Part shown: one piece after another, positions 31,969-64,000 of the stretch
How positions within the stretch are numbered: the first letter of the stretch is position 1
Layout of the letters: every line of letters starts with the position of its first letter
IMG/VR virus record: IMGVR_UViG_3300025896_000028
Length of the DNA: 64,000 nucleotides
Direction: 5' to 3' (one strand)
From: a virus
Translations under genes and position numbers: made by a program
Notes under the pieces: model-generated
Databases searched by the model: none
Seen by the model: only the letters and a program-made list of their open reading frames with translations
Told to the model about the DNA's origin: nothing

Positions 31969-32000
31969 GATATTAACTAAATTAATCGTACCTTTGCACT

Positions 32001-37561: not shown

Positions 37562-38644
37562 ATGAAAATCAGAAATAGTGTTAGGATTTATAGTGGTAAT
37601 ACTACTAGGAAAAATCATCTCAAAACACTTAGGAAAAAAGTTTTAAATTACCAAGATTATGTTGAGTATTATTTTATACAAAAAAGTGACGAAACTTTGT
37701 ATATTGAATGTCGAAAATACACTAAAGATTATTTAGAGTTTTCAGACTTAGACTATAAGGTAAAGGGTCTTATTGAATTTGATTTAATCAATAAAAAGCT
37801 AACCAAGTCTGTCAATTTCAATTCATATTGGTCTGATGCTAAGCTTTTAACTTATTTAGGTGTTGAGTTTTTATTAGATGATTCAATAAATAATCGTACT
37901 TATAATACTACTATTTATGATTTCATAAAGTCTATTTTTAAGATTTATACAAAGCCTAGTGACATATTAAAATCTATCATTGTTTCAGAAGGTTTCACTC
38001 TGAATAACTTTCCTATGAGTGATTTTAAGAGAGTAATAGGTTATGATAAAAATGTTTGGCAAAATAAAGTTTCACATTATATGTCAATATTTTTCTACAT
38101 GAAAAATGTTGTGGATTTAACTATGTTTTTCAAACATATTAGTAAATTGAAAAAAATGGCATTGGTTGATATGTTTCAAGATGCTAATACATTAGGTTAT
38201 AAAGTCAATATGCGTTGGAGTTATAATCGAATCAAACTTGAACACGAAAATTGGAGTTATGAGATAAGAGATAAGCGATTGTTATCGGAAGAAAATGAAC
38301 AATTATCAACGGGTTATACGTACCCTAAGATTGAAGGTGCTGAATTACTAACATCGAAATTTGCTTTGGTTTATGAAGGTCAAGAAATGAAACATTGTGT
38401 TGGTGGTTCTGGTTACTGGGAATCATGTAAAAGAGGTACTTCTGCAATTTATTCTTATAAAAATAAGCAATCCAAACATCTAAGAGCAACTATTGAAATT
38501 AAGATAGATACGAACAACGGTACAGTTACTTTGAACCAAATACAACGTAAAGGTAATCGTTTATATATTCCAGATGAAATAAAAGAATCTATTAGGAAGC
38601 AACTAAAAGGGTATGTAATACCAGAACTTAGAGAAAAAAAATAA
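37562..38644 (+). CDS. hypothetical protein (360 aa)
   Basis: Long ORF; no recognisable family. Confidence 0.5.
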   Translation: MKIRNSVRIYSGNTTRKNHLKTLRKKVLNYQDYVEYYFIQKSDETLYIECRKYTKDYLEFSDLDYKVKGLIEFDLINKKLTKSVNFNSYWSDAKLLTYLGVEFLLDDSINNRTYNTTIYDFIKSIFKIYTKPSDILKSIIVSEGFTLNNFPMSDFKRVIGYDKNVWQNKVSHYMSIFFYMKNVVDLTMFFKHISKLKKMALVDMFQDANTLGYKVNMRWSYNRIKLEHENWSYEIRDKRLLSEENEQLSTGYTYPKIEGAELLTSKFALVYEGQEMKHCVGGSGYWESCKRGTSAIYSYKNKQSKHLRATIEIKIDTNNGTVTLNQIQRKGNRLYIPDEIKESIRKQLKGYVIPELREKK

Positions 38645-38648
38645 AATA

Positions 38649-38682
38649 ATGACACTATCGTTTGGTAGTGTCATTTTTTTTG
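38649..38682 (+). terminator. rho-independent terminator
   Basis: atgacactatcgtttggtagtgtcat followed by ttttttttg. Overlaps the spurious 5' extension of ORF 38649. Confidence 0.55.
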
Positions 38683-38697
38683 TTTACCTTTGTACTA

Positions 38698-38978
38698 TGA
38701 AAAAATTAAAACAATTTAGCTACTGGAGTCAATTCGGTTTAGATAAAGGAACTCAGTACTATATCATGGCTTCATCACAGAAACAAGTTATTGCTTTATT
38801 TGATACTCTTGGAAAACACTTCTCCGCAAGTTATGTTAGAGATTACTTTTACCAAGCATGGGGCAACGATGGTGCTGAAATAATGAAAGATATTGAGATT
38901 ACCGAAGCTTGTATCTATGCGGTTAAAAGAACCGATAGTTTTGGTAAAGCAATCGAAGAACCAAAAAAAGTTGTCTAA
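38698..38978 (+). CDS. hypothetical protein
   Basis: ATG directly after tacctttgtact; the track start at 38649 lies within the terminator. Confidence 0.45.
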
Positions 38979-39053
38979 AAATTTGCACAAGTCAAAAATT
39001 TGTTTTACCTTTGTCGGGTATTAAAATACTAACACTAACAAAAACCAAAAGTC

Positions 39054-39686
39054 ATGTCAAAAAAAGTAGCAAAATTAGTAAGAGTATCGTTGGTAACAAG
39101 AGTAATTGTTGATGCTGATGCTTCCGAAACGGATATCCTTATCCAATCCCAAATGAAATTTATCGAACAAATCACAAACGAAATCCATGAGAACTTGGAA
39201 GAAATCGTTGATGATACTGAATGTCCTTATGAGGAATCAGAAGTAGAAGACATCGAAAACTATATTGATGTTTACGCTAGTGTTGAATTAGACACGTGGT
39301 TGCGTTGTAAAGAAGAAATCATGTCTTTTGCCATTGATGGTATAAATCATCACGATAACGAGTCCAGAATGACTCACGAAGACGACTGGAATATCAACCT
39401 AAGAATCCATAGAGAAGATTATGCTAGTCTTGAAAAGTTTTGTAACTATTTTGAAACGGTTGAAGTTGATGACGATAAGTCAGATGAAGTTTATGATATT
39501 TTGTGTGATGAATACTTACATTCTGATGTGACAAGTGGTGAAATGATTTATTCAACTACGTTAAGCTTAAAGTTTACCGAAGGTGATGTAAGAGAAGGTG
39601 TTCAAACATTCTTGGATTGGGATGATTCACCAGAAACCTTTGCAATCGAGAAAGGCGATAAACACTGGATAATTAAGTGTATCTAA
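39054..39686 (+). CDS. hypothetical acidic protein
   Basis: tacctttgtcgggtat motif upstream. Confidence 0.5.
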   Translation: MSKKVAKLVRVSLVTRVIVDADASETDILIQSQMKFIEQITNEIHENLEEIVDDTECPYEESEVEDIENYIDVYASVELDTWLRCKEEIMSFAIDGINHHDNESRMTHEDDWNINLRIHREDYASLEKFCNYFETVEVDDDKSDEVYDILCDEYLHSDVTSGEMIYSTTLSLKFTEGDVREGVQTFLDWDDSPETFAIEKGDKHWIIKCI

Positions 39687-39738
39687 AAATAATTTAAAAA
39701 AACCTGGGCAAAAATTTGCAAGTGTCCAGGATTTTACT

Positions 39739-39776
39739 TACCTTTGTACTCTAATCAATAATAAAAACTAAAAGCT
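39739..39776 (+). promoter_or_regulatory. conserved phage promoter plus leader (TACCTTTGTACTCTAATCAATAA..)
   Basis: Same 38-nt unit recurs upstream of ORFs starting at 40494, 41966, 43903, 48452 and 50114. Confidence 0.6.
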
Positions 39777-40178
39777 ATGTCAAAATTAACAAAAACACAG
39801 GAAATTAAATTAATGATTATCGAAAACTATATCGATAATTTTACTACCAACGATGATGAACGTGATACAATGAAAGCTAATGCTTTGATATACGTTGAAG
39901 AAGACCACGTTGATGAAATTGCACAATCTGGAATGAGTATGTTGCCAACTGAAAGACAGAATGTAATCACCAGAGTACGTCATTTACTTTGCGAGTTAGA
40001 TACTGACGAAGAAGTTGTTGAAGCTGTCAGAGCCATTGTTAACATGAAAGACCAAGATGCGTATGTTGATTGGGTTGATGGGATAATCGTTTGGGATAAG
40101 GTATCTAATACATTCACTTGTGAAGAATTTTTAGAAGAAATCGAATACTACGATGGATTTGAAAATGAATTAAACTAA
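39777..40178 (+). CDS. hypothetical protein
   Basis: Promoter-proximal ORF. Confidence 0.5.
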   Translation: MSKLTKTQEIKLMIIENYIDNFTTNDDERDTMKANALIYVEEDHVDEIAQSGMSMLPTERQNVITRVRHLLCELDTDEEVVEAVRAIVNMKDQDAYVDWVDGIIVWDKVSNTFTCEEFLEEIEYYDGFENELN

Positions 40179-40180
40179 TC

Positions 40181-40429
40181 ATGATGGAAAAGACACCAAA
40201 ACAAGTTACAGAGGACATCTTAAAATCATTAAGAGTACCTAACGCACCCGAAGGAATATTGCTTGAAAGCTATTTAGAAATCTGGGAAAAAAGTATCAAA
40301 AAGAAACTACTTGAAGGAGTATATCAAGAGATAAGTGAGAACACTTTGAAAGATTGTGAATATTTAACATTACCTACTGTCAAAGATATTTTGATTAGAC
40401 ATGGTGCTGATGTAAAAAAAATGAAATAA
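40181..40429 (+). CDS. hypothetical protein
   Basis: ORF in operon context; no recognisable motif. Confidence 0.45.
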   Translation: MMEKTPKQVTEDILKSLRVPNAPEGILLESYLEIWEKSIKKKLLEGVYQEISENTLKDCEYLTLPTVKDILIRHGADVKKMK

Positions 40430-40455
40430 AATTAGGATATGTCAAAAACATTCCT

Positions 40456-40493
40456 TACCTTTGTACTCTAATCAATAATAAAAACCAAAAGCT
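40456..40493 (+). promoter_or_regulatory. conserved phage promoter plus leader
   Basis: ccttacctttgtactctaatcaataataaaaaccaaaagct ATG. Confidence 0.6.
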
Positions 40494-40829
40494 ATGTCAG
40501 AATTAAAGTTTAAATTTAAAAAGAAAGGTAACAACATTGTAGCCTTTGATGCCGAAGACAACACGAAATCTTACGGAAAAATAAATATCAAAACTGGTGA
40601 GTGTACTGGTGGAACTCTTTGCTTCCAAGCACTACGTGACCATTTAGCAACCCTTGTTGTTAAAAAGACATACAAGGTTTGGCTTGTAGTTGAAGAATGT
40701 ACTGAATTTGCTGATGGTACGGAAGTCTACAAAGACTTGAAAGATGAAACTGCTAGTGTAGGTTCATTTGGAAAGCTTGAAAGTGCCTACGAGAGAATGG
40801 GTATCGTTGCAAATACATTTAACTACTAA
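40494..40829 (+). CDS. hypothetical protein
   Basis: ORF in operon context; no recognisable motif. Confidence 0.5.
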   Translation: MSELKFKFKKKGNNIVAFDAEDNTKSYGKINIKTGECTGGTLCFQALRDHLATLVVKKTYKVWLVVEECTEFADGTEVYKDLKDETASVGSFGKLESAYERMGIVANTFNY

Positions 40830-40841
40830 AAACCAAAAGCC

Positions 40842-41060
40842 ATGTCAAACACAATAAAAGTAATCGAGTACGCAGATTTTTCAAGTGAAGAAAATTTATT
40901 CTTCGAGCATAGAGGTGACGTTGTTTGTCTTTATGATGATTTAAGTGAACCATGTACATTGGGTTGGTTCAAAGTATGGTACGATTCCGAAATGGAAGAC
41001 AGAGAATACATTACAGTGAATGATACAATCATTTATTTGGATTCGATAGACGAACTTTAA
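40842..41060 (+). CDS. hypothetical protein
   Basis: ORF in operon context; no recognisable motif. Confidence 0.45.
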   Translation: MSNTIKVIEYADFSSEENLFFEHRGDVVCLYDDLSEPCTLGWFKVWYDSEMEDREYITVNDTIIYLDSIDEL

Positions 41061-41070
41061 AAACAAAACT

Positions 41071-41667
41071 ATGAATATATTTCCAAAGAGTGTCTTTAAA
41101 GGCACGAACGCAGATGGTACTAAATTTACCGCAAAGGAATATGATTTTTCAACGTATGCTAATATAGCTTCGATTAATTTCTTCATGTATCTATTGTTCG
41201 GTGCTTTATTCTCTGGATTTGTAGCACCTATAGTATTGTTGTTATCGGTACTATCTTTTAATGGTAGGTTTAATATGCTATACCTATTAGGTATAATATT
41301 CAGTACCTACTTCCTATATGATTGTTATCATGGGTGGATAATACTCTTGATGTTGAGTTTTTTATGTAATGGTACTACTGGAACAGAGTATTATTGGTTC
41401 ATAGACTTACTTGTAGCGTTGAATGTGGGTGTATTGGTTACGATTGGTGGTTTAATTGTCTTTGGAAGTCAAATATTTGACTTCATAAATGAAAAAATTG
41501 AAGATTATCATGCAAAGTTAGCTTATTTTTTCGGATTTGTACTACTAATTTTCGTATTTGGGTGTGTAAAAGGTAATGTTATTACAAATAAAGACAAAGA
41601 TTGGGTAAATAGAGCGTTGGAGTTGGGTAATTTTAATACAACACATAGTAACAATACTATACACTAG
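41071..41667 (+). CDS. integral membrane protein (4-5 TM)
   Basis: Multiple hydrophobic helices. Confidence 0.5.
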   Translation: MNIFPKSVFKGTNADGTKFTAKEYDFSTYANIASINFFMYLLFGALFSGFVAPIVLLLSVLSFNGRFNMLYLLGIIFSTYFLYDCYHGWIILLMLSFLCNGTTGTEYYWFIDLLVALNVGVLVTIGGLIVFGSQIFDFINEKIEDYHAKLAYFFGFVLLIFVFGCVKGNVITNKDKDWVNRALELGNFNTTHSNNTIH

Positions 41668-41861
41668 TCCAGGAAATGTAAAATTTATTAAAAATAAATG
41701 TAAATTTACTTGAAATTGTCCTAAAAAATCCGTACCTTTGTATTATAATAATAAAATATAATAAATAATATATAAATAACTAACTATAATAACTATACTA
41801 GTATGGTATTAGTTTTATGTTAGTGAGAAATATACTTGGTGGTTCTTGTATATTGGAGAAA

Positions 41862-41890
41862 TGGGTAGCTAGTCTACCCTTTTTTTTTAA
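41862..41890 (+). terminator. rho-independent terminator
   Basis: gggtagctagtctaccc followed by ttttttttt. Confidence 0.55.
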
Positions 41891-41965
41891 TATATTATAA
41901 AAAAATTAGGATATGTAAATATTAATACTTACCTTTGTACTCTAATCAATAAACAAATAGAAATT

Positions 41966-42271
41966 ATGGCAATGAAAATCAATACCAAGTTATTTACAGC
42001 TAACGAAATTGCAAGTAAATTCAATTACGGAAGAACTATACAAATCCTTGCTAACTTAGAGGAAATAGTATGTGAATTTCAAGAAGAAAAAGAAGCGTTA
42101 TCCAACATGGCGTTTCCACCAGAACAAACCATTAACGACATTGATAAACAATTACGTTACTTAGCGTTGAATATCAATACTGTAAAAGATGTTATTAATA
42201 ACCATGAGAGAAATTCTTTTGATAACCTTATGACTTCAATGGGAATTTCTGTAAATATTTCTAAGAATTAA
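41966..42271 (+). CDS. hypothetical protein
   Basis: Promoter motif at ~41930. Confidence 0.5.
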   Translation: MAMKINTKLFTANEIASKFNYGRTIQILANLEEIVCEFQEEKEALSNMAFPPEQTINDIDKQLRYLALNINTVKDVINNHERNSFDNLMTSMGISVNISKN

Positions 42272-42330
42272 TTAGGAAGTTCCAAATATTATTCTTACCT
42301 TTGTATCATCATTAACATAAACCAATAATT

Positions 42331-42828
42331 ATGAAAAAGAATTCAGCCATTGTAGATTGCAGAAAAAAAGTATTAACTATTATATTCAACGGAGAAGAAC
42401 ACGTAGTTGATTTAAGAGAAGGTGATTTACACGACAATTGGAACTCAATCCAAGATAAGAATGAAGTAGTATGGGATATCAACTTTAGTTGGGAAGATTG
42501 CAAAGGTGAGAAGCCTTATCTTAGTATCTATGCTTTGGAAGAACCAAACGAAGAAGGTTACCAATCAACCAATTGGGATGATTACACTTCAATCAATGTT
42601 AAGGCTATAGGTAATCGTGATGATTACTTCAAGGAAGAACGTTTCAAATACAGATTTGATTCAGCTTCAAGTCTTACTTTTAGGGTTTACGACCAAACAG
42701 ATAATTTGTTATTCAAAACAAAAAGTCTTAACAAAGCTAGTGACTTCGTAACCAACCATAAATGGTTGACAAGGTTGAATAGCTACATGATAGTAACCGA
42801 TGCTAATGGTGCTACTAAAAAAATCTAA
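42331..42828 (+). CDS. hypothetical protein
   Basis: Promoter motif at ~42296. Confidence 0.5.
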   Translation: MKKNSAIVDCRKKVLTIIFNGEEHVVDLREGDLHDNWNSIQDKNEVVWDINFSWEDCKGEKPYLSIYALEEPNEEGYQSTNWDDYTSINVKAIGNRDDYFKEERFKYRFDSASSLTFRVYDQTDNLLFKTKSLNKASDFVTNHKWLTRLNSYMIVTDANGATKKI

Positions 42829-42829
42829 G

Positions 42830-43261
42830 ATGAAAAAACTAATCTTCTTTTTACTGGTATCTACCGTGTGTTTCGGGCAATCAATTACAGTTGAAAATGT
42901 TACACTTACCTATAACAAAACGAACAACTCAATGCTTATTGTGATACCGCCTAAGTGCTTGGTGTTCCCAAACAATGACAAGAGGTTTGCTGTAAGGATA
43001 ACCAGAGAATACGACTTGGTTATGGAAATCAATGGGGTTCAATATACTATGGGTGATACATACTTTGCGTTTAGCGGGTTAACACGACCCACACATAGTG
43101 AAGAATTTTATGAGAACATAAAGAATTGCAAATGGTTAAGTAAACATTACAATTTTTTGTTTCCAAGTGTTGAAAAAGGTGAGTACATCTTGACCGTAAC
43201 AATAACACGTGATGATGGTACAGTTGTGATAACTAAAAATAATTCATTAATTATTAGGTAG
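42830..43261 (+). CDS. secreted/periplasmic protein (signal peptide)
   Basis: MKKLIFFLLVSTVCFGQ signal peptide; start re-set within the track ORF 42800. Confidence 0.45.
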   Translation: MKKLIFFLLVSTVCFGQSITVENVTLTYNKTNNSMLIVIPPKCLVFPNNDKRFAVRITREYDLVMEINGVQYTMGDTYFAFSGLTRPTHSEEFYENIKNCKWLSKHYNFLFPSVEKGEYILTVTITRDDGTVVITKNNSLIIR

Positions 43262-43309
43262 ATTAAAATCTTTTACTTACCTTTGTAATCTAATCAATAA
43301 ATAGAAATT

Positions 43310-43837
43310 ATGACAACTACGACATTTACAATTGACGATGCAATCCGAAATCAACGTGACCAATTATTTGCTTGGCGTAAAGTACTTACACCCGAAGCCT
43401 ATGGTGATTTGGTTATCTATGCTGAACAAAATAATAGAACCGCTAAACAACCTAAAGATATTATTCGTGGCACTAATTTGAGTGTTTTTATTGAAAACTA
43501 TTCAAATGAAATAAAAGCGGTTGATAATAATACAACAATGACAAAAATGAGTGCTGACGACCTTAGAAGTTTGCAACACGGTGATAAGGTTTATCTAGGT
43601 AATGGTTCAAGTATGCGTGGTTTACATTATGTTGGACGTATGCCAACAAGTGAAGAACATTATCTTATTTTTTGTGACGGACAATATCTTACACACTTAT
43701 ATATTCATAACGATAACACTTTCAATGGTGATTGGTTTATGGGCAAATATGATAGTGAGTTTGTTGGTAACTATATTAAAGACTGGCACTTAAAAAGAAT
43801 TGATAGTGTTGAAAGAATTTATTTTGAAAAAAAATAA
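43310..43837 (+). CDS. hypothetical protein
   Basis: Promoter motif at ~43278. Confidence 0.5.
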   Translation: MTTTTFTIDDAIRNQRDQLFAWRKVLTPEAYGDLVIYAEQNNRTAKQPKDIIRGTNLSVFIENYSNEIKAVDNNTTMTKMSADDLRSLQHGDKVYLGNGSSMRGLHYVGRMPTSEEHYLIFCDGQYLTHLYIHNDNTFNGDWFMGKYDSEFVGNYIKDWHLKRIDSVERIYFEKK

Positions 43838-43902
43838 GAAACAATTTGGTTAATTAGAATCTTTTACTTACCTTTGTACTCTAATCAATAAAAACAAATA
43901 TC

Positions 43903-44253
43903 ATGTCAAGACTTACAGGTAAAGAATTAGCATCAGAGTTAGCAGACTTCGTTAACTCTAGCAACAAAGAGAAGTATCAAGAGTTCATTCAGTCATTCAG
44001 CAATCAACACAGAACGCTACAACAATCAGCTTTCGGATTGGTGCTTCAATTGGTAGAACACATGGCTTCTGACGAGTACCATACAGATGCTAGAAACGCT
44101 GATTCCAAGAAAGTGGCACAAACCCTTATGAAAGGATTTAAAGTGGCTCAAACGGCTCAATATGTTGCCGAGGGAACTTCCGAGGTTAGAGCGAAAGAAT
44201 ACATGGAAATGGAAGGCTTTGACAAACCAAGTAGATATTTAGGATTCATTTAA
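43903..44253 (+). CDS. hypothetical protein
   Basis: Promoter motif at ~43869. Confidence 0.5.
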   Translation: MSRLTGKELASELADFVNSSNKEKYQEFIQSFSNQHRTLQQSAFGLVLQLVEHMASDEYHTDARNADSKKVAQTLMKGFKVAQTAQYVAEGTSEVRAKEYMEMEGFDKPSRYLGFI

Positions 44254-44263
44254 TATTAGAACT

Positions 44264-44614
44264 ATGAAACAGATAGACGAAACAGAATTTGACGAAAAAT
44301 ACAAATTGGTTATTAATCACTTTGAGAGAGCGAAACAACCAGACACGGTTGCTGACGAAGACTTGTGTTCTTTCAACGGATATATGTTTGAAACCTTTGG
44401 TGAAGAACTTGACTTCGTAAGAGAAATGGCTAAACAGAACCGAGTTATTACTATACTTGAAGGTGATGATGAAACTTGTTCTGGTGAGTGTGAAGCTTGT
44501 GAATGTGGTTCTACAATATACTACGTTAATGGGTATCACCTTGTAAATAGAATTGGGTATTTCGTAACCGAAGAACCTATCACCGAAGAATTTGAATGTA
44601 AATTAGACTACTAA
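44264..44614 (+). CDS. hypothetical Cys-rich protein
   Basis: Contains CSGECEACECGS, which looks like a Zn-binding cluster. Confidence 0.45.
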   Translation: MKQIDETEFDEKYKLVINHFERAKQPDTVADEDLCSFNGYMFETFGEELDFVREMAKQNRVITILEGDDETCSGECEACECGSTIYYVNGYHLVNRIGYFVTEEPITEEFECKLDY

Positions 44615-44919: not shown

Positions 44920-44956
44920 ATTAGGATTATTAAAATTAATACCATACCTTTGTACT

Positions 44957-45506: not shown

Positions 45507-45527
45507 TTTGGTAGTTTAAAATAATTT

Positions 45528-46007
45528 TTGTACCTTTGCCCTATGAATATATTTGTATTAGATACCGACCCGAAAAAATGTGCTGAATATCATAATGATA
45601 AGCACTGCGTAAAAATGATACTTGAAACTGCACAACTTCTTTGTGGTGTACACTGGGTATTAGGTGGTGAAGCACCGTATAAACTTTCACACAAGAATCA
45701 CCCATGTGCTATTTGGACACGTGAATGTATTGAAAATTACATTTGGTTATGTGACTTAGGTCTTGAACTATGTGCCGAATACACGTATCGTTATGGTAAG
45801 CGACATAAGTCAGAAGACATCATTGAATGGTGTTTGATGAACCAACCAGATTTACGTGACAATGGTGATATTACGGAGTTCGCAGTAGCTATGCCAGATG
45901 AATGTAAAAATGATGATATAGTTCAAGCATATAGAACTTATTATATGGTTGAGAAACGTAACATAGCAGTTTGGAAAAACAGAGAAGTACCACAATGGTT
46001 TAATTAA
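45528..46007 (+). CDS. hypothetical protein
   Basis: Weak N-terminal resemblance to pyrimidine-dimer glycosylase (DenV) proteins; not reliable. Confidence 0.45.
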   Translation: MYLCPMNIFVLDTDPKKCAEYHNDKHCVKMILETAQLLCGVHWVLGGEAPYKLSHKNHPCAIWTRECIENYIWLCDLGLELCAEYTYRYGKRHKSEDIIEWCLMNQPDLRDNGDITEFAVAMPDECKNDDIVQAYRTYYMVEKRNIAVWKNREVPQWFN

Positions 46008-46069
46008 TTTCAAATAAATTTGGTAGTTCCAAATATTATTCTTACCTTTGTACTATAAAATTAGAAACT

Positions 46070-46657: not shown

Positions 46658-46732
46658 AAAAGTTTAAAAAAAACTTGTGTATGTCAAAAATTATTCATAC
46701 CTTTGTAATCTAATCCTTAAATACTAATTATT

Positions 46733-46990: not shown

Positions 46991-46994
46991 GCTA

Positions 46995-47290
46995 ATCGGG
47001 TTCTCTTATGCACGGGAGAGGAAAGTACCTACAAGGGATGTAGGTAGCCCTAACAATATATAGGATAGAGGGAAATACTAGCTAGGGATTTATCTTGTCG
47101 GATAATGAAATCACTCGCCATCGGCTCCAAACCCCCCCTCGACTCCTTAGACATAATTTGGGTTTTGGTGACTTACATACGTGCTAGTACTTGATTAGCG
47201 TTTGGCGGTGAAGACGGACAGTTGGAAAGACAACGAATCACAATCGGTTAGAAGGCAATCTTTTTGCATTTTGGTTGCCTTCGACATCGA
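46995..47290 (+). ncRNA. candidate structured non-coding RNA (ORF-free, GC-elevated)
   Basis: ~300 nt without ORFs; hairpins cctaca-aggga-tgtagg and gaaggcaa-N16-ttgccttc; GC noticeably above flanks. Confidence 0.3.
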
Positions 47291-47308
47291 TACTTAAAAA
47301 AAAGAAAA

Positions 47309-48388: not shown

Positions 48389-48451
48389 CAAAATATTTGG
48401 TAGATTAAAATATTATTCTTACCTTTGTACTCTAATCAATAATTTAAAGCT

Positions 48452-48763: not shown

Positions 48764-48768
48764 AAACA

Positions 48769-48797
48769 AAGAGGGTAAATTTTACTCTCTTTTTTTG
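48769..48797 (+). terminator. rho-independent terminator
   Basis: agagggta-aattt-tactctct hairpin followed by ttttttg. Confidence 0.5.
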
Positions 48798-48841
48798 TTT
48801 ATATCAATTTTAATGCGTACCTTTGTATCAAACAAAATCTA

Positions 48842-49842: not shown

Positions 49843-50077
49843 ATTTAAGTTAATACTAATCACAATAATAAAAGGATTGTTCTTTATAGTTACATATTCA
49901 GCTATTTGGTTATGTCTATTCATTGATGTGTTGGTTAAAATTCTATCAATTGGAATGTTCGAGAGCTTTCTCACTGAAAACTTAACAAGATTCTCAATCT
50001 ATGTTATGAATAAAATGTTACAAATAGAATTTAAAATTATTTTTAAGAAATAATTTGGTAGTTTAAAATATTATCCT

Positions 50078-50113
50078 TACCTTTGTACTCTAATCAATAA
50101 ATAAAGAGAAATT
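50078..50113 (+). promoter_or_regulatory. conserved phage promoter plus leader
   Basis: ccttacctttgtactctaatcaataaataaagagaaatt ATG. Confidence 0.6.
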
Positions 50114-50921: not shown

Positions 50922-51186
50922 CGAACCGACTTACGAGGAAAAAAGCCAATACTTACGAACACATGGTTGGCACACACTTTGGTCGGAAGATAATTGGATT
51001 GAAGAAGGTATTGAACACCAAAATTTAGACCATGCGGGTTGCTCAACCGATGTTGCCTACTATTCAGAGATAAATAGAGGTATAGACCAACCACATACTG
51101 GCGACTGGGGTAAGAATTACTATGACAAAGATGGTAATTATATAAGTTCAGAGGTTTATGATAAAGAAAATAAGTTAAAAAATTAG
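50875..51186 (+). CDS. hypothetical protein
   Basis: ORF in operon context; no recognisable motif. Confidence 0.4.
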   Translation: MIKSKVELKQIYPMTNEPTYEEKSQYLRTHGWHTLWSEDNWIEEGIEHQNLDHAGCSTDVAYYSEINRGIDQPHTGDWGKNYYDKDGNYISSEVYDKENKLKN

Positions 51187-51238
51187 GTAGTGTCAAATAT
51201 TATACTTACCTTTGTAATCTAATCTAAAAATAATAATT

Positions 51239-52295: not shown

Positions 52296-52299
52296 AACT

Positions 52300-52796: not shown

Positions 52797-52855
52797 ATAT
52801 TTGCGTATGTCAAATATTATACATACCTTTGTACTCTAATCTAAAAGAAACTATT

Positions 52856-53929: not shown

Positions 53930-53947
53930 TCTAAAAACAAAAATATT

Positions 53948-54995: not shown

Positions 54996-55047
54996 TTTGG
55001 TAGTATGAATTATTATACGTACCTTTGTAATCTAATATAAAAATACT

Positions 55048-55404: not shown

Positions 55405-55408
55405 AACA

Positions 55409-56668: not shown

Positions 56669-56695
56669 TGGAAGTAGAATGCTCTCCAACTAGCG

Positions 56696-57201: not shown

Positions 57202-57472
57202 GTTAGTAGAAGAAGTAAAAGTCAAAACAGAAAAATTAACAATTGAAGAATTTGTTGATTTGATGATTAAGTATAAACCTACGGGAATATTCAATACTTA
57301 CTATTCAAGCAAGTCACCATGTTGGCATATCACAGAATATATCCATGACTTCACCATTATGTATTACGCACATTCTTATGCTGATAAAACACCTAGAATG
57401 ATTAATCTGGATGATTTCTATCGCATGATATCGTATCAAGGTCTTGACCAATGTCATTTTGTTACAGATTAA
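57182..57472 (+). CDS. hypothetical protein
   Basis: ORF in operon context; no recognisable motif. Confidence 0.4.
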   Translation: MEIKLYRLVEEVKVKTEKLTIEEFVDLMIKYKPTGIFNTYYSSKSPCWHITEYIHDFTIMYYAHSYADKTPRMINLDDFYRMISYQGLDQCHFVTD

Positions 57473-57511
57473 TTAGGATATTAAAAAAACTTTATGTACC
57501 TTTGTACTATG

Positions 57512-58183
57512 AAAAACATATTCACATTACCGACACCAAATCCTAGTGAACTTTATAAGAATATAAATGGTGAATTGGGTTACACGAAAAATTTTTTTAT
57601 CCAAAACGATGGGTTTAATGATAATCAGCAAATCTATATCACCAACGATGAAGTAATAAAAACTGGTGACTGGTGTATGTCTTTATGTGATGATGAATCA
57701 TTTGAAGAAATATACAAGTGTGAAGATGTTGATTTGGTTGATGAAGAAGATAAAAAAATTATCTTTACCAAAGACCCAATTCTTATCAAAGATGGTGTAG
57801 AAACTATTCCAGATAATTTCATTGAATGGTTCCTTCAAAATCAAACTTGTGAAAGTATTGAAGTGAAAAAAAATTGTTGTGGAGAATGTGATGAACGTCT
57901 TTGTGAAATACATGATTTGCAACGAGAAGAAACTAAGTATAATACTTTTTATAAACTGATAATTCCTAAACACGAAACACTAAGTGAGAAATTAGATAAG
58001 ATAGTTTCGAAAGAACCAAGCAAGTTTTGGGCAGAAAGTGATGAAAGAATTAAAAGTAAAGAAATCACCTATACAGCAGATGAAGTTCTAGGATTTTTAC
58101 ATGATTATGAAGCCTTTAAATTTAATAGTTCCGTTCCAGTTAACATTGATGTTTGGTTTCATAAGAATAAAAAAAGAAAATAA
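57512..58183 (+). CDS. hypothetical protein
   Basis: ATG (MKNIFTLP) directly after tacctttgtact; track start 57494 lies within the promoter. Confidence 0.5.
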   Translation, partial: KNIFTLPTPNPSELYKNINGELGYTKNFFIQNDGFNDNQQIYITNDEVIKTGDWCMSLCDDESFEEIYKCEDVDLVDEEDKKIIFTKDPILIKDGVETIPDNFIEWFLQNQTCESIEVKKNCCGECDERLCEIHDLQREETKYNTFYKLIIPKHETLSEKLDKIVSKEPSKFWAESDERIKSKEITYTADEVLGFLHDYEAFKFNSSVPVNIDVWFHKNKKRK

Positions 58184-58219
58184 TTAGGATATCCCAAAAA
58201 TTTTACATACCTTTGTACT

Positions 58220-59119
58220 ATGAAAAACATACACCTAACAATAACACAAGAAAAAGCTTACCTTACCGTCATGAATGGTAGGGTTCGTTTTGATTATACA
58301 CCAATATTCGGTGAACCATCAATTAGAATGGATGCAGTGGATATGCACATCACAATCAATGAAGAACCAAAGCTTGATGAATGGGGAATCAATATTGATA
58401 ATAATGTCGTGTTTAAAGATAAAGGGTTTACATCTGATGAATACGGTAAACTATACTGCAAAAAAATCATTATGACCACCGACCAACAACTTATCAGAGC
58501 GGGTGTTCAAGAAATATCCATGGAAGTTCTGGAATGGTACGCCAAAAACCCAACACATGATTTTGTCAAGATTGAATCAGAAGTTAAATTTTACGATAAA
58601 CATGGTTTCTGTGTTAGTTTAATCTGTCAAGAAGGTGACTACGAAAAACTCATGTACTACATTGAGCTACCTAGTGAAAAAACATTAAGCATCAATAACT
58701 TTGTTAACGTGTTTAAGATACCTAAAAAGTATTTCGGTAGCAAAGAAGAACAAACCGACTGGAAACCATCAACAATAGCACATATGGAAGCTTGTGGTGT
58801 TGACCCAAATGATTTACCATATAACCCAAAAGGTAATTCAACTCACGAAGATAGACTTGCGAAAGCCTTGACCAAGTATGTAAGAGAAAAACATACACAA
58901 GAGGAATGTATCGGGTTTATCGATGGCTTCAATGAAAATGTAACGCTAGAGTTTAATCAAACTGAAAATACCAGTCAATGGTGCAAGGTTTTTGATGAAA
59001 TGAGAGCTTCACCTTACATTGATATGAAAGGTATGAGAGATTGTGATGTAACAGCTATTATTAGTTGGTTATCGTCTAACTATCATTTTCCAATTACAAA
59101 CAATAAACCTTACAGATAA
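58220..59119 (+). CDS. hypothetical protein
   Basis: ATG (MKNIHLTIT) directly after tacctttgtact. Confidence 0.5.
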   Translation: MKNIHLTITQEKAYLTVMNGRVRFDYTPIFGEPSIRMDAVDMHITINEEPKLDEWGINIDNNVVFKDKGFTSDEYGKLYCKKIIMTTDQQLIRAGVQEISMEVLEWYAKNPTHDFVKIESEVKFYDKHGFCVSLICQEGDYEKLMYYIELPSEKTLSINNFVNVFKIPKKYFGSKEEQTDWKPSTIAHMEACGVDPNDLPYNPKGNSTHEDRLAKALTKYVREKHTQEECIGFIDGFNENVTLEFNQTENTSQWCKVFDEMRASPYIDMKGMRDCDVTAIISWLSSNYHFPITNNKPYR

Positions 59120-59146
59120 AATTAAACAATTTAAAAAACAATAACT

Positions 59147-59335
59147 ATGCAAGAAGAATTAGAAGGATTATTGAACGAAATGGAATCAAAGATTGACCCA
59201 GAATTTGATTTTGAAGTGGAACACTGGGACAATGGAAACTTTGACGATAGCTATGAGTATGGCGTTGAAGTAGGTGAGGAATATGCTTACAGAGAAATCG
59301 TGGCGAAGCTAAAAGAAATCCTTAAAAAGAAATAA
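59147..59335 (+). CDS. hypothetical acidic protein
   Basis: ORF in operon context; no recognisable motif. Confidence 0.4.
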   Translation: MQEELEGLLNEMESKIDPEFDFEVEHWDNGNFDDSYEYGVEVGEEYAYREIVAKLKEILKKK

Positions 59336-59532
59336 GATGCCAGAAGTAGAACCTAAGTTTACACTAGAATTAACCAAAGCAGAAGCTTTAGGGTTAATGA
59401 GCTGTCTTGTTAGAACGTCAGCCAAAGGAACCGATTTGGACGTGGGTGAAATGATTGAAGATAAATTGGCAGAATTTCTAAATATTCTGTAATTTACTTG
59501 CTTTTTTGAAATAGTATTCGTACCTTTGTAGT

Positions 59533-59817
59533 ATGAAAATGACCTTAAAAGAATATCGAAAATTTGAAATGCGTAGACTAAGTGGTTTTATGCGATTCAT
59601 GGTGCGAATAAAATTGTTCAAACTTATCATAACCGACCAGAATGTTTGGAAAAACAATAATGATTATTATAGTGAAATTAGAATAAACATCTATAACCCA
59701 CTGACTTACATCATGTTGTTGTTTTATATACCATTGGCGTTTTTGATTAATGGTATAAACCCAGATTCATATCGAGATATCAAAAGGGAATTAAAAGAAC
59801 AATTTAAAAAGAAGTAA
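59533..59817 (+). CDS. small membrane protein
   Basis: tacctttgtagt ATG context. Confidence 0.4.
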   Translation: MKMTLKEYRKFEMRRLSGFMRFMVRIKLFKLIITDQNVWKNNNDYYSEIRINIYNPLTYIMLLFYIPLAFLINGINPDSYRDIKRELKEQFKKK

Positions 59818-60169
59818 TATGTTTCGACTACTACGAGTTTACCTAAAGGGTAAAAGAAATCTATTCAATAAATTATCACATAAAAGATATATGGAATTAC
59901 TTTCAAAAGCAAATAGTGTTTTTGATTGTTGCTACACCTTGAAGGAAATCCAATATCTTAGCAGTAAATACTAACTAATATGTGGAAAGAAGAAACACCA
60001 TTACAATTTTTAGCAAGTTGCATTTGGAATACCAGTGAAATTTTAAATATACCATTAGGTAGATTAGCACCAACTATATTTGGTTGGATGATAGGTGCGA
60101 AAAAAGAAAAGAAATAGTTTGGTAATCTGAAATATTATTCATACCTTTGTAATCTAATCATAAAGAAAC

Positions 60170-60559
60170 ATGAAATTAGCTATTAAACAATACGAGTACG
60201 AGAAGAAAGAAATCAACTCAAAAGAAATCGAACTTCCTACCGAAACTGCATATTACTTTGAAACAGGTGTAAGACGTTCTATTAGAATCGTTCCTAAGTT
60301 TACTACATGGAACAAAGAACATTACGATAAAGAAGAAGAACTATATGAGTTAAAAATTACTTGTGTGTATCTTTCTTCTGAATGTATCATTGAAAAGTTT
60401 ACTCTATATCCAAAAGACATTGAGAAAATATTCTATGCTGACAAACATAAACTGCTAGATTTCGTAAGAGCATTGGTTAACGATTGGTTTGATAATAGAA
60501 CCAAAGAAAAATTTGAAGCTGATTTGAACGAAGCCATAAGACAGCTTAAAGAAGAATAA
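60170..60559 (+). CDS. hypothetical protein
   Basis: Promoter motif at ~60142. Confidence 0.5.
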   Translation: MKLAIKQYEYEKKEINSKEIELPTETAYYFETGVRRSIRIVPKFTTWNKEHYDKEEELYELKITCVYLSSECIIEKFTLYPKDIEKIFYADKHKLLDFVRALVNDWFDNRTKEKFEADLNEAIRQLKEE

Positions 60560-60835
60560 ATGACAAGACAAGAATGTACATACCATTCTAATTTTGTACT
60601 GGCTTCCATTAAAGAATACTACAACGGAAAACTAGTCAAACACGAAACCTTTACCGACACAGGTGAAACAATGTATCTTTTTCGAGAAGAGGAGTATAGA
60701 GTTTTTTGGTACGAATATGTTTATGAGAATGGTGTGCTAGTATGGTTCTGGAACTCAGATGGGCATACGGTAACGTACAACGACAATGGTGTTATTAAAT
60801 CCATGTCGACCATAAAGCTGAAATCAGAAATTTAG
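60560..60835 (+). CDS. hypothetical protein, RQExTYY paralog family member 3
   Basis: MTRQECTYHSNF..IKEYYNGKL. Confidence 0.5.
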   Translation: MTRQECTYHSNFVLASIKEYYNGKLVKHETFTDTGETMYLFREEEYRVFWYEYVYENGVLVWFWNSDGHTVTYNDNGVIKSMSTIKLKSEI

Positions 60836-60916
60836 GAAAAGATTTGCATATGTGAAAAATAATACGTACCTTTGTATTATTAGAAACCGATTGCAAGGAC
60901 AAGTGCTAAATCTATT

Positions 60917-61345
60917 ATGAAACTTAAAGAAATTTTAAAAAACAACGTTTATTCTCATTTCGATGGAACTAACCCAACTCTTACTGGTTCGGGTCTTGAT
61001 GCCATGACACCATTTTTTAATGATATTGAAGAATTTAATGGTAAAATCATCGAAGTAATTCATACTTTAGATGATTTGGTAACAGTAAAAGGTGTTGAAA
61101 ACCTTAGTGAAAATGTAAAAATACAAACGCTATTTTTAATAAACGATGATGTTTTTATTCGATGCACATCTGATTCATTAAAAACACTTAATGAGAACAT
61201 AAAACAACAAAAATTGTATAGTGAGGAAGTTGTTGAGTTAGTTGCTCTTGAAATGGTTAGTTGGGCTATTGATAACATCGGTAATATTTCTGCTCAAAGT
61301 GGTAAAAAGTTTGATGAAGTATTAGGTAAATATAAAAACAAATAA
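60917..61345 (+). CDS. hypothetical protein
   Basis: tacctttgtatt motif upstream. Confidence 0.45.
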   Translation: MKLKEILKNNVYSHFDGTNPTLTGSGLDAMTPFFNDIEEFNGKIIEVIHTLDDLVTVKGVENLSENVKIQTLFLINDDVFIRCTSDSLKTLNENIKQQKLYSEEVVELVALEMVSWAIDNIGNISAQSGKKFDEVLGKYKNK

Positions 61346-61349
61346 GATT

Positions 61350-61757
61350 ATGAAAATCGAAAAACTAGAATCAAGAACAAAATGGCTATGCGAAGCCGAA
61401 GGTCACGAATACGTTAGAGAAGAAATCCAATGGGTTGATGGTGGAATAACAATAGGTTGGCATCTTAACGAAGATAGCACAGCAGATTACGAAGCACTAA
61501 CCGATGAACAATTGGAAACCTTATTCTGGCAAAATAATGTCAAAAAGAATAACCCAGTGTTCTATTCGTCAAACACCGACAAGTCATTTACCCCAACAGA
61601 AAAAGGTTGGTACATACAATACAGAACAGAATCGGGTGACGAAGGTGCTATCAAAGTTGATAGAGAGCCAACGTCTGATGAAGATGCACTACAATTGCTA
61701 AAAGAAATTGATGCTGATGAATTGTGGAATGTACATTACTACGCTCTGGTTGACTAA
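61350..61757 (+). CDS. hypothetical protein
   Basis: ORF in operon context; no recognisable motif. Confidence 0.45.
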   Translation: MKIEKLESRTKWLCEAEGHEYVREEIQWVDGGITIGWHLNEDSTADYEALTDEQLETLFWQNNVKKNNPVFYSSNTDKSFTPTEKGWYIQYRTESGDEGAIKVDREPTSDEDALQLLKEIDADELWNVHYYALVD

Positions 61758-61971
61758 ATGGTTAAACAGGAAGTAACATACTACCCAGATACATTTAGAA
61801 TCAAAGAATACAAAGAATATCATAACGATGTTTTAGTTGTTCACACCAAATATGATGAGAACAACAAAAAGGTTTATATATATCTAGCCTATGCTGATTT
61901 TCTATGGGAAACTAAAGAAAAAATATTGGTGTAGATTTGCATATATGAAATATTATATGTACCTTTGTACT

Positions 61972-62721
61972 ATGAAAAAAGATAAACTATACGGAGCAAT
62001 ACTTGGTGACCTCGTAGGACAACCCTACGAGTTTCCCATTATGGCAAACTTCCCACCAGAAGATACAATCAACCTACATAACCCAGATTCAGTATTTAGC
62101 GATGATACGCTAATGACACTGGCAACCGCCAAAGCAATCCTAGATAACCAATCATTCGAGGAAGCATACAAAGAAGTAGGTATGAGATACCAAGGCGACC
62201 ACTATGGCAAAGACTTCAAAGAATGGCTTAACTCACCAATGGGTACGATTAATAAATCTTGGGGCAACGGGTGTCTGATGAGAATAGCACCGTTTATGTA
62301 TCTATCAAACGCTTTGTTAACAACCAAAGAACTTATCGCTGAATCTTGCCTAACATCACACGTGAACGCTGAAAGCATTGTATATTCGTTGGAATTGGCT
62401 GAACTGTACTATACAAATCTTAATGAGTATGACTACTTTATTAAGTTTAAATTATTTCCATTTACAAAGTTTGAAGTGAAAGCCAAAGATACATTTAGAT
62501 TCTGTAAAAGTGCATTTATCTATCATTCAGATAAGAATACCCAAGATGCTATCAAAAATGTTGTTAGCTGTGGCGGTGATACAGATACCAACGCATCAAT
62601 AGTTGGTGAACTACTTAACTATCACCTTCAAGACCTAACACAAGCAGACATAGACTACGTAGAAAGTAAACTAGACCCTTATCTACTAGATATCCTTAAA
62701 CGATTTAATGAAAGATACTAA
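61972..62721 (+). CDS. ADP-ribosylglycohydrolase (ARH/DraG family)
   Basis: N-terminal LYGAILGDLVGQPYEF (GAxxGDxxGxPxE) and C-terminal SCGGDTDTNASIVGELL di-metal motifs. Start re-set to the ATG after tacctttgtact (track begins at 61891). Confidence 0.75.
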   Translation: MKKDKLYGAILGDLVGQPYEFPIMANFPPEDTINLHNPDSVFSDDTLMTLATAKAILDNQSFEEAYKEVGMRYQGDHYGKDFKEWLNSPMGTINKSWGNGCLMRIAPFMYLSNALLTTKELIAESCLTSHVNAESIVYSLELAELYYTNLNEYDYFIKFKLFPFTKFEVKAKDTFRFCKSAFIYHSDKNTQDAIKNVVSCGGDTDTNASIVGELLNYHLQDLTQADIDYVESKLDPYLLDILKRFNERY

Positions 62722-62993
62722 TGGAAGAAAAACCAATATACAGACTAGTAAAATCCTATAACGGACACTGGGGACTTAGATGGAACGGTAACCCAGACTA
62801 CGACTTCATGCCAAAGCAAGTTACCAGAGATAACCAAAAAGCCTACAATGCCAGAAGTGGTGACGCTTGTAATAGTATTAGAGTACCATCATTGAAACGT
62901 TCCGATAAGGTATGGAGAAATTTCTATAACCTATTTCCAAGTATCAAAGGACAGAAAACCTATAGAGGTTGTAAACTAAAAACAATAAAATAA
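62721..62993 (+). CDS. hypothetical protein, translationally coupled to the ARH gene
   Basis: TAATG overlap with the ARH stop codon. Confidence 0.45.
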   Translation: MEEKPIYRLVKSYNGHWGLRWNGNPDYDFMPKQVTRDNQKAYNARSGDACNSIRVPSLKRSDKVWRNFYNLFPSIKGQKTYRGCKLKTIK

Positions 62994-62994
62994 T

Positions 62995-63915
62995 ATGTCA
63001 GTTGAAAGCAATATATTACATATCGATTTTAAAATCGATATTAGTGGTGGATATTCAAATCCAATACCAGAAGTCTATATGTTTAAATACCGTTATAAAA
63101 CCTATACCTTTGAAGTAACATTGCCAATGTATAACAACGGTACACCATGGACAGATATCTTTAGCAGTGCAATCTCAAAGATAATTGAATTGGAAAATTT
63201 AACAATAAGCAAAGATTCTAGTTGGGGTGGTAGTGTATATTCAACAACTGATACTTATAGACTAGAAAAAAGAGAAAACTTAAACGATGATGAAGTTGCT
63301 GAAATAATAGGACATGGTGGTTTTAGTAGAACCTATTATGTTATCCATAAGTTAAATGATATTGACCATAAATCAATATTGAATGGTGTTACCTATGATG
63401 AAGATGATAACTGGGTAGATACAGAAAACTTGAAGGCTCTATATGATGCTGTTGAAAACTATAACAATCCTAAAACAATACTCGCTAATAAATTAGAAAT
63501 ATTAAAAAGCAAGTTCATTGATAGTATTGAACCAATATTCAAAGAATATACTGATAAGTTCCAATTGGAATTTGATGAATACTTGTTAATTATAGGTGCT
63601 TATAAATCTGGCGATATTGTTAAAACAATTTTTAATGAATTTTATGTTATTAGTGATATTAATAATGAAAATATTATTGGTAACTGTAAACTTACACTTA
63701 ATCATATCTTTCCAAAAAATTATGTTGAATTTCAAAACGATAGAGATATAAAACCCAAGGATATTAATGACCCATATTACTATGGTTATAGAGTGAATAA
63801 AAGTGGTGCAGTATCTATTAAAAAAACCAACGTATATGGTATCAACACTAAACTTGGTGAAATCAAAGACTTTAAAAAACCATCAGAGTTAAAAAAATTA
63901 ATGAACGATAATTAG
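62995..63915 (+). CDS. hypothetical protein
   Basis: Coupled start after the upstream stop. Confidence 0.5.
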   Translation: MSVESNILHIDFKIDISGGYSNPIPEVYMFKYRYKTYTFEVTLPMYNNGTPWTDIFSSAISKIIELENLTISKDSSWGGSVYSTTDTYRLEKRENLNDDEVAEIIGHGGFSRTYYVIHKLNDIDHKSILNGVTYDEDDNWVDTENLKALYDAVENYNNPKTILANKLEILKSKFIDSIEPIFKEYTDKFQLEFDEYLLIIGAYKSGDIVKTIFNEFYVISDINNENIIGNCKLTLNHIFPKNYVEFQNDRDIKPKDINDPYYYGYRVNKSGAVSIKKTNVYGINTKLGEIKDFKKPSELKKLMNDN

Positions 63916-64000
63916 GTTATTCCAATAACTTTGCGTACCTTTGTAAAAAAGAAATCAGTATGAGAAACATTCACGAAAACTACGTACCATATTCAGAATC

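Follow-up and report, generated by a model that had tools for sequence, protein, structure and literature searches.

Thirty-six probable Bacteroidota-type promoters joined to leaderless or short-leader start modules in an uncultivated jumbo phage

The 64,000-nt stretch of IMG/VR record IMGVR_UViG_3300025896_000028 analyzed here (the window) comes from an uncultivated jumbo phage with a genome of ~230 kb; it is AT-rich (G+C ~33%), with nearly all genes on the plus strand. It carries 36 copies of a repeated unit that an initial annotation had described as a conserved promoter and leader preceding small genes. The units are probably sigma-A-class promoters of the Bacteroidota type, joined to start modules that either supply a short leader or dispense with one. 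Absent from that earlier account were a sigma-A-like factor encoded by the phage itself, a class of predicted leaderless messages, and an invariant, clade-specific CC within the promoter core.

The unit reads T(T/C)(T/A)G-N20-TACCTTTG, with 35 copies on the plus strand and one on the minus strand (Table 1). In the register used here, T(T/C)(T/A)G spans -36 to -33 and TACCTTTG spans -12 to -5. The -33 element is TTTG in 18 units, TTAG in 11 and CTTG in 7, with T-35 and G-33 invariant; the spacer, AT-rich around -18, measures 20 nt in 36/36 units, and the -7 element is TACCTTTG in 36/36, followed by TA(C/A)T. The repetition is genuine, at 36 copies against ~0.02-0.06 by chance. A strict pattern, TTDG-N20-TACCTTTG, matches 29 times, always on the plus strand, against 0.06 expected; a loose one, TTTG-N17-21-TAnnTTTG, matches 22 times against 3.6; and a position weight matrix (PWM) built from the 35 plus-strand copies over -37 to -3, allowing CTTG at -33 and with a cut-off score of at least 20, finds 35 sites on the plus strand and 1 on the minus strand, against ~0.02 in Markov shuffles. 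Nearly every plus-strand TACCTTTG (35/38) has TTTG, TTAG or CTTG exactly 20 nt upstream, and only 8 TACCTTTG sites fall outside promoter units in the 128 kb of both strands.

Within 38600-63960, where the annotation had placed an array of more than 25 copies, 26 of the 36 are found, and a unit stands directly upstream of each of the 14 start codons it had quoted (39777, 40494, 41966, 42331, 43310, 43903, 46070, 46733, 48452, 50114, 51239, 52856, 55048 and 60170). The array is not confined to that span, since ten further copies, one on the minus strand, lie at 3802-36296; nor does every small gene have its own unit, 25 of the ~60 open reading frames (ORFs) in the span being so equipped (~1 per 2.4 ORFs). 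Copies inside coding sequence in random orientation, named beforehand as evidence against a promoter, were looked for: all 36 units lie between genes, the sole overlaps being with mis-called upstream starts, and every one has the orientation of the next gene. The suspicion that the ORF caller had placed TTG starts inside the motif was correct (for example at 45528, 52829, 35601 and 22150), the real ATG lying downstream. Only two units, 28589 and 41733, have no ORF behind them. E. coli-type promoters were not enriched in the window (111 against 93.6 +/- 8.4), and the T4 late motif TATAAATA, tried as another candidate, was depleted (4 against 11.1 expected). The only good promoter candidates without CC are two weaker ones of a more host-like type, TTGCAA-N-TATTTTTG at 10107-10138 (PWM score 13.9) and TTGCAA-N-TATCTTTG at 18845-18876 (PWM 11.6, following a terminator and with an ATG 3 nt past its -7 element).

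Promoters of sigma-ABfr reportedly pair a -33 TTTG with a -7 TAnnTTTG. In Flavobacterium johnsoniae (Baez et al. 2019, PMC6847099) the -7 element is T-12 A-11 H H T-8 T-7 T-6 G-5, transcription starts 4 or 5 nt after it, the -33 element is weak, and AT-rich tracts lie at -18 and -28. The phage units agree with this class in the two elements and where they lie, in the AT-rich -18 region and, as inferred here, in the 4-5-nt start geometry; this match to the published consensus bears out the proposal that the core is a Bacteroidota sigma-A promoter. They differ from F. johnsoniae promoters in that every copy has both elements at full consensus, the spacer is rigid at 20 nt, the nn of the -7 element is always CC, and conservation extends from -4 to +11.

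The closest relative, IMG/VR contig IMGVR_UViG_3300033984_000473 (232,931 bp; locus L052), is ~90% identical over the region and offers 17 orthologous promoter pairs, for which third codon positions (85.2% identity, 362/425) serve as a neutral yardstick. Identity is 100% in the -7 element (136/136), 98.0% at -42 to -37, 97.6% at -36 to -32, 95.6% at -4 to -1, 93.0% in the leader from +1 to +11 (133/143), 89.0% in the rest of the leader and 88.2% in the spacer. Both core elements are thus under strict selection, the early leader is mildly constrained and the spacer is nearly neutral. The AAATATTAT stretch, earlier read as conservation beyond what sigma-A needs, is simply the AT-rich -18 region of this spacer, at 88% against 85% at third codon positions and of a kind already present in host promoters. 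Nor could any extra regulator-binding site be shown; the phage's own sigma factor suggests itself as a better candidate for such a role. Within the core, CC at -10/-9 is invariant in all 35 plus-strand copies while neighboring positions vary (the minus-strand copy also has CC), so that CC is under selection and not merely inherited.

Downstream of this shared core, the units divide into two start modules. In eight, an ATG, and always ATG, begins exactly 4 nt after the -7 G (TACCTTTG-tact-ATG), against 0.08 expected; because this equals the published start-site distance, the corresponding mRNAs are probably leaderless. In three proteins of this class a recognized domain opens almost at the N-terminus (SmpB at residue 4, pyrimidine-dimer glycosylase at residue 1, ADP-ribosylglycohydrolase at residue 6), which supports these ATGs as true starts, and the genes at 32001 and 58220 have no earlier in-frame start. 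Among 199 units surveyed at 23 non-redundant related loci, the distance from the -7 G to the ATG peaks at 4 nt (18 units, with 4 more at 5 nt), is never 7-11 nt, and forms a broad hump at 14-35 nt. The 4-nt peak provides indirect but strong support both for the position of the start site and for a conserved leaderless class. Leaderless mRNAs are common in Actinobacteria, Deinococcus and Archaea, and a minority in F. johnsoniae. The phage class resembles them in placing AUG, and AUG only, at the +1 predicted from promoter geometry; unlike them, it accounts for a fixed share, roughly 10-20%, of a single family of phage promoters.

The leadered class comprises 25 units with A-rich leaders of 11-38 nt, free of Shine-Dalgarno sequences and essentially unstructured (mean minimum free energy [MFE] -1.5 kcal/mol, z +0.5), and 18/25 have A at -3. 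In these respects, and in their shortness, they are like the leaders of Bacteroidota genes, where A at -3 and unstructured leaders without a Shine-Dalgarno sequence are the determinants of initiation (Baez et al. 2019, PMC6847099). The ATG had been placed 19-30 nt past the unit; it does lie downstream in the leadered units, over the wider range given above, and at 4 nt in the other eight. The phage also encodes an IF3 at 16882-17376 (+), with both domains (IF3_N 1.6e-19, IF3_C 4.7e-29). E. coli IF3 discriminates against leaderless mRNAs, and the phage protein may therefore bear on the two initiation modes.

With these distances in hand, a view in which the repeat is not a promoter at all can be weighed: a chance low-complexity repeat, a miniature inverted-repeat element (MITE), an integron attC-like site or a terminator. 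Superficially, a repeat between successive short ORFs does recall cassette arrays, and a few units overlap hairpins. The repeat has no inverted-repeat architecture, however, and its strict orientation, intergenic location and exact match to the -33/-7 consensus and spacing, together with start codons at 4 nt or 14-35 nt across the phage family, leave such a view hardly any credence; orientation, strict-pattern counts and the family-wide start-codon distances effectively refute it.

A further element is superimposed on a subset of the units. CTAAT occupies +1 to +5 in 13 of them (12 in the span, plus 36263), most often as CTAATCAATAA; a pattern scan for the leader returned 12 true copies and one 1-mismatch match at 28589, and the copy at 36263 was read directly. 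Its register shows no indel relative to the promoter, and its distance to the ATG varies between 16 and 26 nt. With its anchor in the promoter instead of the start codon, it argues against the translation enhancer that had been suggested; it also lacks the fixed ATG register, conserved structure or Rfam family expected of an enhancer or structured RNA. CTAAT(C) is most likely an initial-transcribed or 5'-end element. The module is lineage-restricted: it is kept in L052 and in part of L054 (5 units) and L057 (2 units), two loci whose sigmas are 60-67% identical to that of the window, and does not occur in relatives L053 and L058. Another phage group (L002, L007 and L008; 3300031521_000507, 3300029998_000165 and 3300031521_000076) uses TTTTTTATTGTCAA...TA(CC/TA)TTTGTACTCTAAT, in which the window's -7 element, discriminator and +1 module (the downstream half TTTG-TACT-CTAAT) follow a different upstream half with closer TTG spacing. 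Across all bacterial species genomes TACCTTTGTAMTCTAATC occurs 37 times against ~35 by chance, never with a full unit and often within non-Bacteroidota coding sequence, so the leader is not host-derived.

It is nevertheless conceivable, if unlikely, that the CTAATCAATAA leader works as RNA, either as a 5' tag bound by a factor or as an rRNA-pairing enhancer, for one class of mRNA. The placement of CTAAT exactly at +1 to +5, the mild purifying selection on the early leader, the retention of (C/A)TAA(T/A)C at +1 in L054, L057 and another phage group, and the presence of a phage IF3 are all compatible with such a role, as is the loop of a conserved small RNA (sRNA) whose consensus, CU[AU]A[CU]CA, is that of the leader. 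Yet CTAAT is missing from most genes, half of the units and two relatives; the leader has no predicted structure, and an Rfam search of the window returned tRNAs only; anchoring to the promoter is more simply accounted for if the element acts as DNA, in the choice of start site or in promoter escape; and neither the varying ATG distance nor the chance-level counts in bacterial genomes favor an RNA function. TCTAATC is the reverse complement of GAUUAGA in the 790 loop of 16S rRNA; pairing there was set aside because seven matching nucleotides in an rRNA of 1.5 kb carry little weight and the distance between leader and AUG does not fit that site.

The sRNA just mentioned is a candidate of ~88 nt at 35433-35520 (-), predicted to be driven by the only minus-strand unit and found also in L052, L054, L057, L058, L059, L060, L063, L072, L086 and L089. 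It folds into a hairpin with the 7-nt loop CUAACCA, resembling the leader motif CUAAUCA, followed by a conserved GCCAUGC(A/G)ACCC and a terminator-like hairpin, with compensatory changes in 5/14 predicted pairs. A covariance model finds it in 11/69 sources, always opposite to the sigma gene and 1.1-2.3 kb downstream; Rfam has no match to it.

Which sigma factor reads the units is a separate question. The ORF at 32901-33785 has Pfam Sigma70_r1_2, r2 and r4 domains, and its best PDB match is SigA (1e-42). It is ~40% identical to genuine Bacteroidota sigma-A proteins, and like them has the common N-terminus without region 1.1; its region 2.4 reads WWVRKIIMEHI against WWIRQSILQAL in the host, and its region 4.2 TREMARQ against TRERVRQ. 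It belongs to a family of ~290-residue proteins of 57-94% identity on contigs of 233-350 kb, in which RNase R-like, phosphoesterase, SmpB and sigma genes precede the small-ORF array in conserved order. Relatives carry a canonical unit in front of the sigma gene itself (L052 at 9957, L057 at 9959). In the window, that unit is broken within its -7 element, TACC|GTCC at 32469, by a 393-nt segment (32469-32865) carrying a DUF551-like ORF (32478-32831), which leaves the window's sigma gene without an intact unit.

The units might, on this evidence, be promoters peculiar to the phage, with the phage sigma as their main or sole reader and with CC, G-32 and the 20-bp spacer discriminating phage from host DNA, a proposal that we regard as improbable though worth stating. 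The factor is complete and has altered residues in both recognition helices (regions 2.4 and 4.2), and CC is invariant in 36/36 units among variable neighbors. A survey of 80 IMG/VR loci encoding a relative of the phage sigma adds that 20-nt spacing dominates clades with RK or RR in region 2.4 ('WW.RK/RR') and is not seen where region 2.4 is host-like, and that the dinucleotide preferred at -10/-9 differs by clade (CC in that of the window; TA, CA or TC in sister clades). However, no alignment column in sigma regions 1.2-3.0 divides CC from non-CC clades, clade-specific dinucleotides could equally mirror different hosts, and the unrelated L002/L007/L008 group uses TA(CC/TA)TTTGTACTCTAAT with its own upstream half. 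The consensus is also not distinct from that of the host, its core being the exact host consensus and only CC, G at -32 and the rigid spacing lying beyond it. A sigma gene behind the same unit type in relatives implies that another factor must fire first, presumably the host sigma-A holoenzyme at the start of infection. The most economical arrangement would be that the host holoenzyme fires the units first and that the phage sigma probably shares them.

Phage sigmas with promoter sets of their own are well known; SPO1 gp28, phiEco32 gp36 and T4 gp55 recognize motifs clearly unlike the host consensus. The present system shares with them a sigma-70-family factor and a highly uniform promoter set in one genome, and departs from them in that the unit core is the host consensus. 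In the parts that deal with these genes, published surveys describe group 2 jumbo phages as lacking RNA polymerase and encoding an RpoD-like sigma (Iyer et al. 2021, PMC7824862), and report genes for IF3 and SmpB in huge phages (Al-Shayeb et al. 2020, PMC7162821). The phage fits these descriptions, with its ~230-kb genome, complete RpoD-like sigma, IF3, SmpB and tRNAs, and no RNA polymerase subunit gene in the 64-kb window. Those parts of the surveys are gene catalogues, silent on cognate promoters; here, by contrast, the promoter set is defined, with a dinucleotide that varies by sigma clade.

The units also bear on how the array changes. The window and its ~90% relative differ by 13 indels or replacements. 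The cassette 43278-43869 is missing from the relative, whose single promoter (L052 18750-18840) is a hybrid that takes its upstream half from the 43278 unit and its downstream half from the 43869 unit; the 46698 unit survives as a conserved island of 73 nt with both flanks replaced; and further breakpoints fall inside units at 32472, 45521 and 46018. Such cases invite the notion that the units are chiefly mobile regulatory cassettes kept alike by recombination, their extended similarity reflecting ancestry and not function. We think this rather doubtful, though it is a serious contender. Among copies, the spacer varies freely and the -33, CC, TTTG and CTAAT positions do not change, which argues for selection on specific positions and not homogenization of the whole repeat; only 3-4 units have an adjoining stem-loop; and breakpoints near units (11/25 against ~8 expected from gene boundaries alone) are not significantly enriched, so that a role in recombination rests on single cases and not on statistics. 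Gain and loss of cassettes at the units would then be an occasional side effect.

In T4-type phages, promoter-early-stem-loop (PeSL) units are said to act as mobile regulatory cassettes. Like T4 early promoters, which are read by the host holoenzyme, and like PeSL, the array sets dozens of near-identical strong promoters before small ORFs of unknown function, shows similarity beyond the core elements, and has repeats that coincide with cassette gain or loss between relatives; it differs in its Bacteroidota-type grammar, in the lack of a stem-loop at most units and in the non-significant breakpoint enrichment. Strong promoter arrays are an ordinary phage feature, and the array here is another such case. 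The description of the genes driven as small and of unknown function holds: only 2 of the ~60 ORFs in the span have Pfam matches, and 3 of the 14 larger ORFs scanned matched PHROG families, of which one is annotated (a membrane protein). A 'Serglycin' Pfam match on concatenated ORFs was an artifact of Gly-Ser linkers. Early timing of these genes is plausible by analogy.

Reading the units as shared Bacteroidota-type promoters, we can outline how they might work. The host RNA polymerase core with a sigma-A-type factor would bind the unit and, if published geometry applies, start 4-5 nt after the G; the host holoenzyme would fire the units at the onset of infection, and the phage sigma-A paralogue would probably use them later. 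In the first module the start site would be fused to the ATG, giving leaderless mRNA; in the second, an A-rich unstructured leader with A at -3 would allow normal Bacteroidota initiation; and the CTAAT(C) that opens 13 leaders would most likely act during initial transcription or as a 5'-end element. With few terminators between units (hairpins adjoin 38685, 41930 and 48818 within 34-54 kb), transcripts probably read through, and would be nested and additive over ~60 small ORFs. As direct repeats, the units may now and then serve as crossover points for the gain or loss of cassettes.

Several observations weigh against this account, the modest breakpoint counts among them. CC is a minority choice in the F. 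johnsoniae supplementary table (TACCTTTG 24, against 66 for TATTTTTG, 49 for TACTTTTG, 45 for TATCTTTG and 42 for TAATTTTG), so plain reading by host sigma-A leaves CC unexplained, and this hints at a lineage-specific requirement. F. johnsoniae is itself only a proxy for the phage's host. The CTAAT class has a pyrimidine at its predicted +1, and transcription may in fact begin at a neighboring position. The placing of start sites, their timing and the choice of sigma are all deduced from sequence.

A bolder combination can be envisioned, at long odds: the sigma paralogue and the clade dinucleotide would form a private promoter code that steers the host core, and the +1 CUAAUC tag, shared with the sRNA loop, would be a 5' mark for a common partner, perhaps linked to IF3, that sorts one mRNA class from leaderless and host mRNAs. 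Current concepts are unchanged unless this private code proves true.

What the array does provide is a promoter set, defined by sequence, for a widespread and uncultivated family of Bacteroidota jumbo phages; a pattern-based IMG/VR scan, more distant sigmas included, found 421 stretches encoding a sigma relative. Neither these promoters nor the phage family that carries them is described in the literature searched, and a megablast of 38.6-63.5 kb against GenBank phages returned no match; the best protein matches to known phages (nuclease at most 49% identity, sigma at most 35%) indicate that no close relative is among them. Promoter positions correct ~10 start codons, and they predict that leaderless phage mRNAs form a conserved class, in a phylum with unusual translation initiation. 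Particular questions include whether a phage copy of the primary sigma reads host-factor promoters, and whether the -10/-9 dinucleotide is the discriminator. The units should also be useful as strong promoter parts for the genetics of Flavobacteriia and Bacteroidia.

Table 1. Promoter units and neighboring features of the window; leader classes and transcripts are predicted, and positions in parentheses are the short names used in the text
Feature	Coordinates	Strand	Sequence feature	Start codon or remark
Unit	3802..3862	+	-33 CTTG; 25-nt leader	ATG 3863
Unit	7220..7267	+	TTTG; 12-nt leader	ATG 7268, PRPP synthetase-like gene
Unit	17863..17909	+	TTAG; 11-nt leader	ATG 17910
Unit	22160..22212	+	TTTG; 17-nt leader	ATG 22213
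Unit	27447..27499	+	CTTG; 17-nt leader	ATG 27500
Unit (28589)	28565..28600	+	CTTG	No downstream ORF; faces non-coding tRNA region
Unit	31965..32000	+	TTAG; leaderless	ATG 32001 at predicted +1; SmpB, Pfam domain from residue 4
Promoter remnant	32445..32476	+	TTAGG..TACC|GTCC	Sigma gene's own unit, split by 393-nt insertion relative to L052
Sigma-70-family gene	32901..33785	+	294 aa; regions 1.2, 2, 4; no region 1.1	Bacteroidota sigma-A-like; candidate cognate factor
Unit	35517..35552	-	CTTG-N20-TACCTTTG	Sole minus-strand copy; would drive conserved 88-nt structured RNA, HNH gene beyond
Unit	35572..35627	+	TTTGG; 20-nt leader	ATG 35628
Unit (36263)	36239..36296	+	TTTGG; CTAATC leader, 22 nt	ATG 36297
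Unit (38685)	38661..38696	+	Leaderless	ATG 38697; overlaps terminator hairpin 38648-38675
Unit	38982..39053	+	TTTGC; 36-nt leader	ATG 39054
Unit	39715..39776	+	CTAATCAATAA leader, 26 nt	ATG 39777
Unit	40432..40493	+	CTAATCAATAA leader, 26 nt	ATG 40494
Unit (41733)	41709..41744	+	CTTG	No ORF; would drive candidate ~145-nt sRNA 41745-41890
Unit (41930)	41906..41965	+	CTAATCAATAA leader, 24 nt	ATG 41966
Unit	42272..42330	+	23-nt leader ATCATTAAC	ATG 42331
Unit (43278)	43254..43309	+	CTAATCAATAA leader, 20 nt	ATG 43310; left edge of cassette missing from relative
Unit (43869)	43845..43902	+	CTAATCAATAA leader, 22 nt	ATG 43903; right edge of that cassette
Unit	44921..44956	+	Leaderless	ATG 44957
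Unit	45507..45542	+	Leaderless	ATG 45543; Pyr_excise domain from residue 1
Unit	46019..46069	+	15-nt leader	ATG 46070
Unit (46698)	46674..46732	+	CTTG; CTAATCC leader, 23 nt	ATG 46733; conserved island, both flanks replaced in relative
Unit	48396..48451	+	CTAATCAATAA leader, 20 nt	ATG 48452
Unit (48818)	48794..48841	+	12-nt leader	ATG 48842; right behind terminator 48768-48792
Unit	50054..50113	+	CTAATCAATAA leader, 24 nt	ATG 50114
Unit	51183..51238	+	CTAATC leader, 20 nt	ATG 51239
Unit	52800..52855	+	CTAATC leader, 20 nt	ATG 52856
Unit	54996..55047	+	CTAATA leader, 16 nt	ATG 55048
Unit	57473..57508	+	Leaderless	ATG 57509
Unit	58184..58219	+	Leaderless	ATG 58220
Unit	59497..59532	+	CTTG; leaderless	ATG 59533
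Unit	60118..60169	+	CTAATC leader, 16 nt	ATG 60170
Unit	60843..60916	+	38-nt leader	ATG 60917
Unit	61936..61971	+	Leaderless	ATG 61972; ADP-ribosylglycohydrolase domain from residue 6
Unit	63912..63959	+	12-nt leader	ATG 63960; ORF continues past window end
tRNA	30595-30668			
tRNA	30782-30880			
tRNA	30978-31049			Gln
tRNA	31157-31255			
NAPRTase-family gene	to 1057			
Macro	2562-3011			
ATP-grasp R2K	3011-3787			
SIR2	5147-5905			
PRPP synthetase-like	7268-8260			
Thg1 tRNA-His guanylyltransferase	9320-10090			
ADP-ribosylglycohydrolase	61972-62721			

Other features of the window may be noted briefly. A second candidate sRNA, ~135-145 nt and AU-rich, lies at 41745-41890 (+) and ends at a terminator at 41863-41879; it is identical to the 90% relative at 97/98 positions, against 85% at silent sites, has an MFE of -30.1 kcal/mol (z -2.0), and has no Rfam match. 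The relative also conserves a 318-nt gap at 46991-47308 that contains neither ORF nor unit; Rfam gave no match to it at the gathering threshold. Genes absent from the relative include a PcfJ-like gene (37562-38644, +) and the small ORFs 35628-35834, 40181-40429 and 43310-43837. The only substantial minus-strand gene encodes an HNH endonuclease (34953-35402) with a weak AP2 match. SmpB (32001-32444, +; 1.5e-52) adjoins the tRNA cluster at 30595-31255, in which ARAGORN overlooked two members, each 99 nt in length; the window yielded no tmRNA. Finally, 320-13896 holds a cluster of NAD-/ADP-ribose- and tRNA-related genes.

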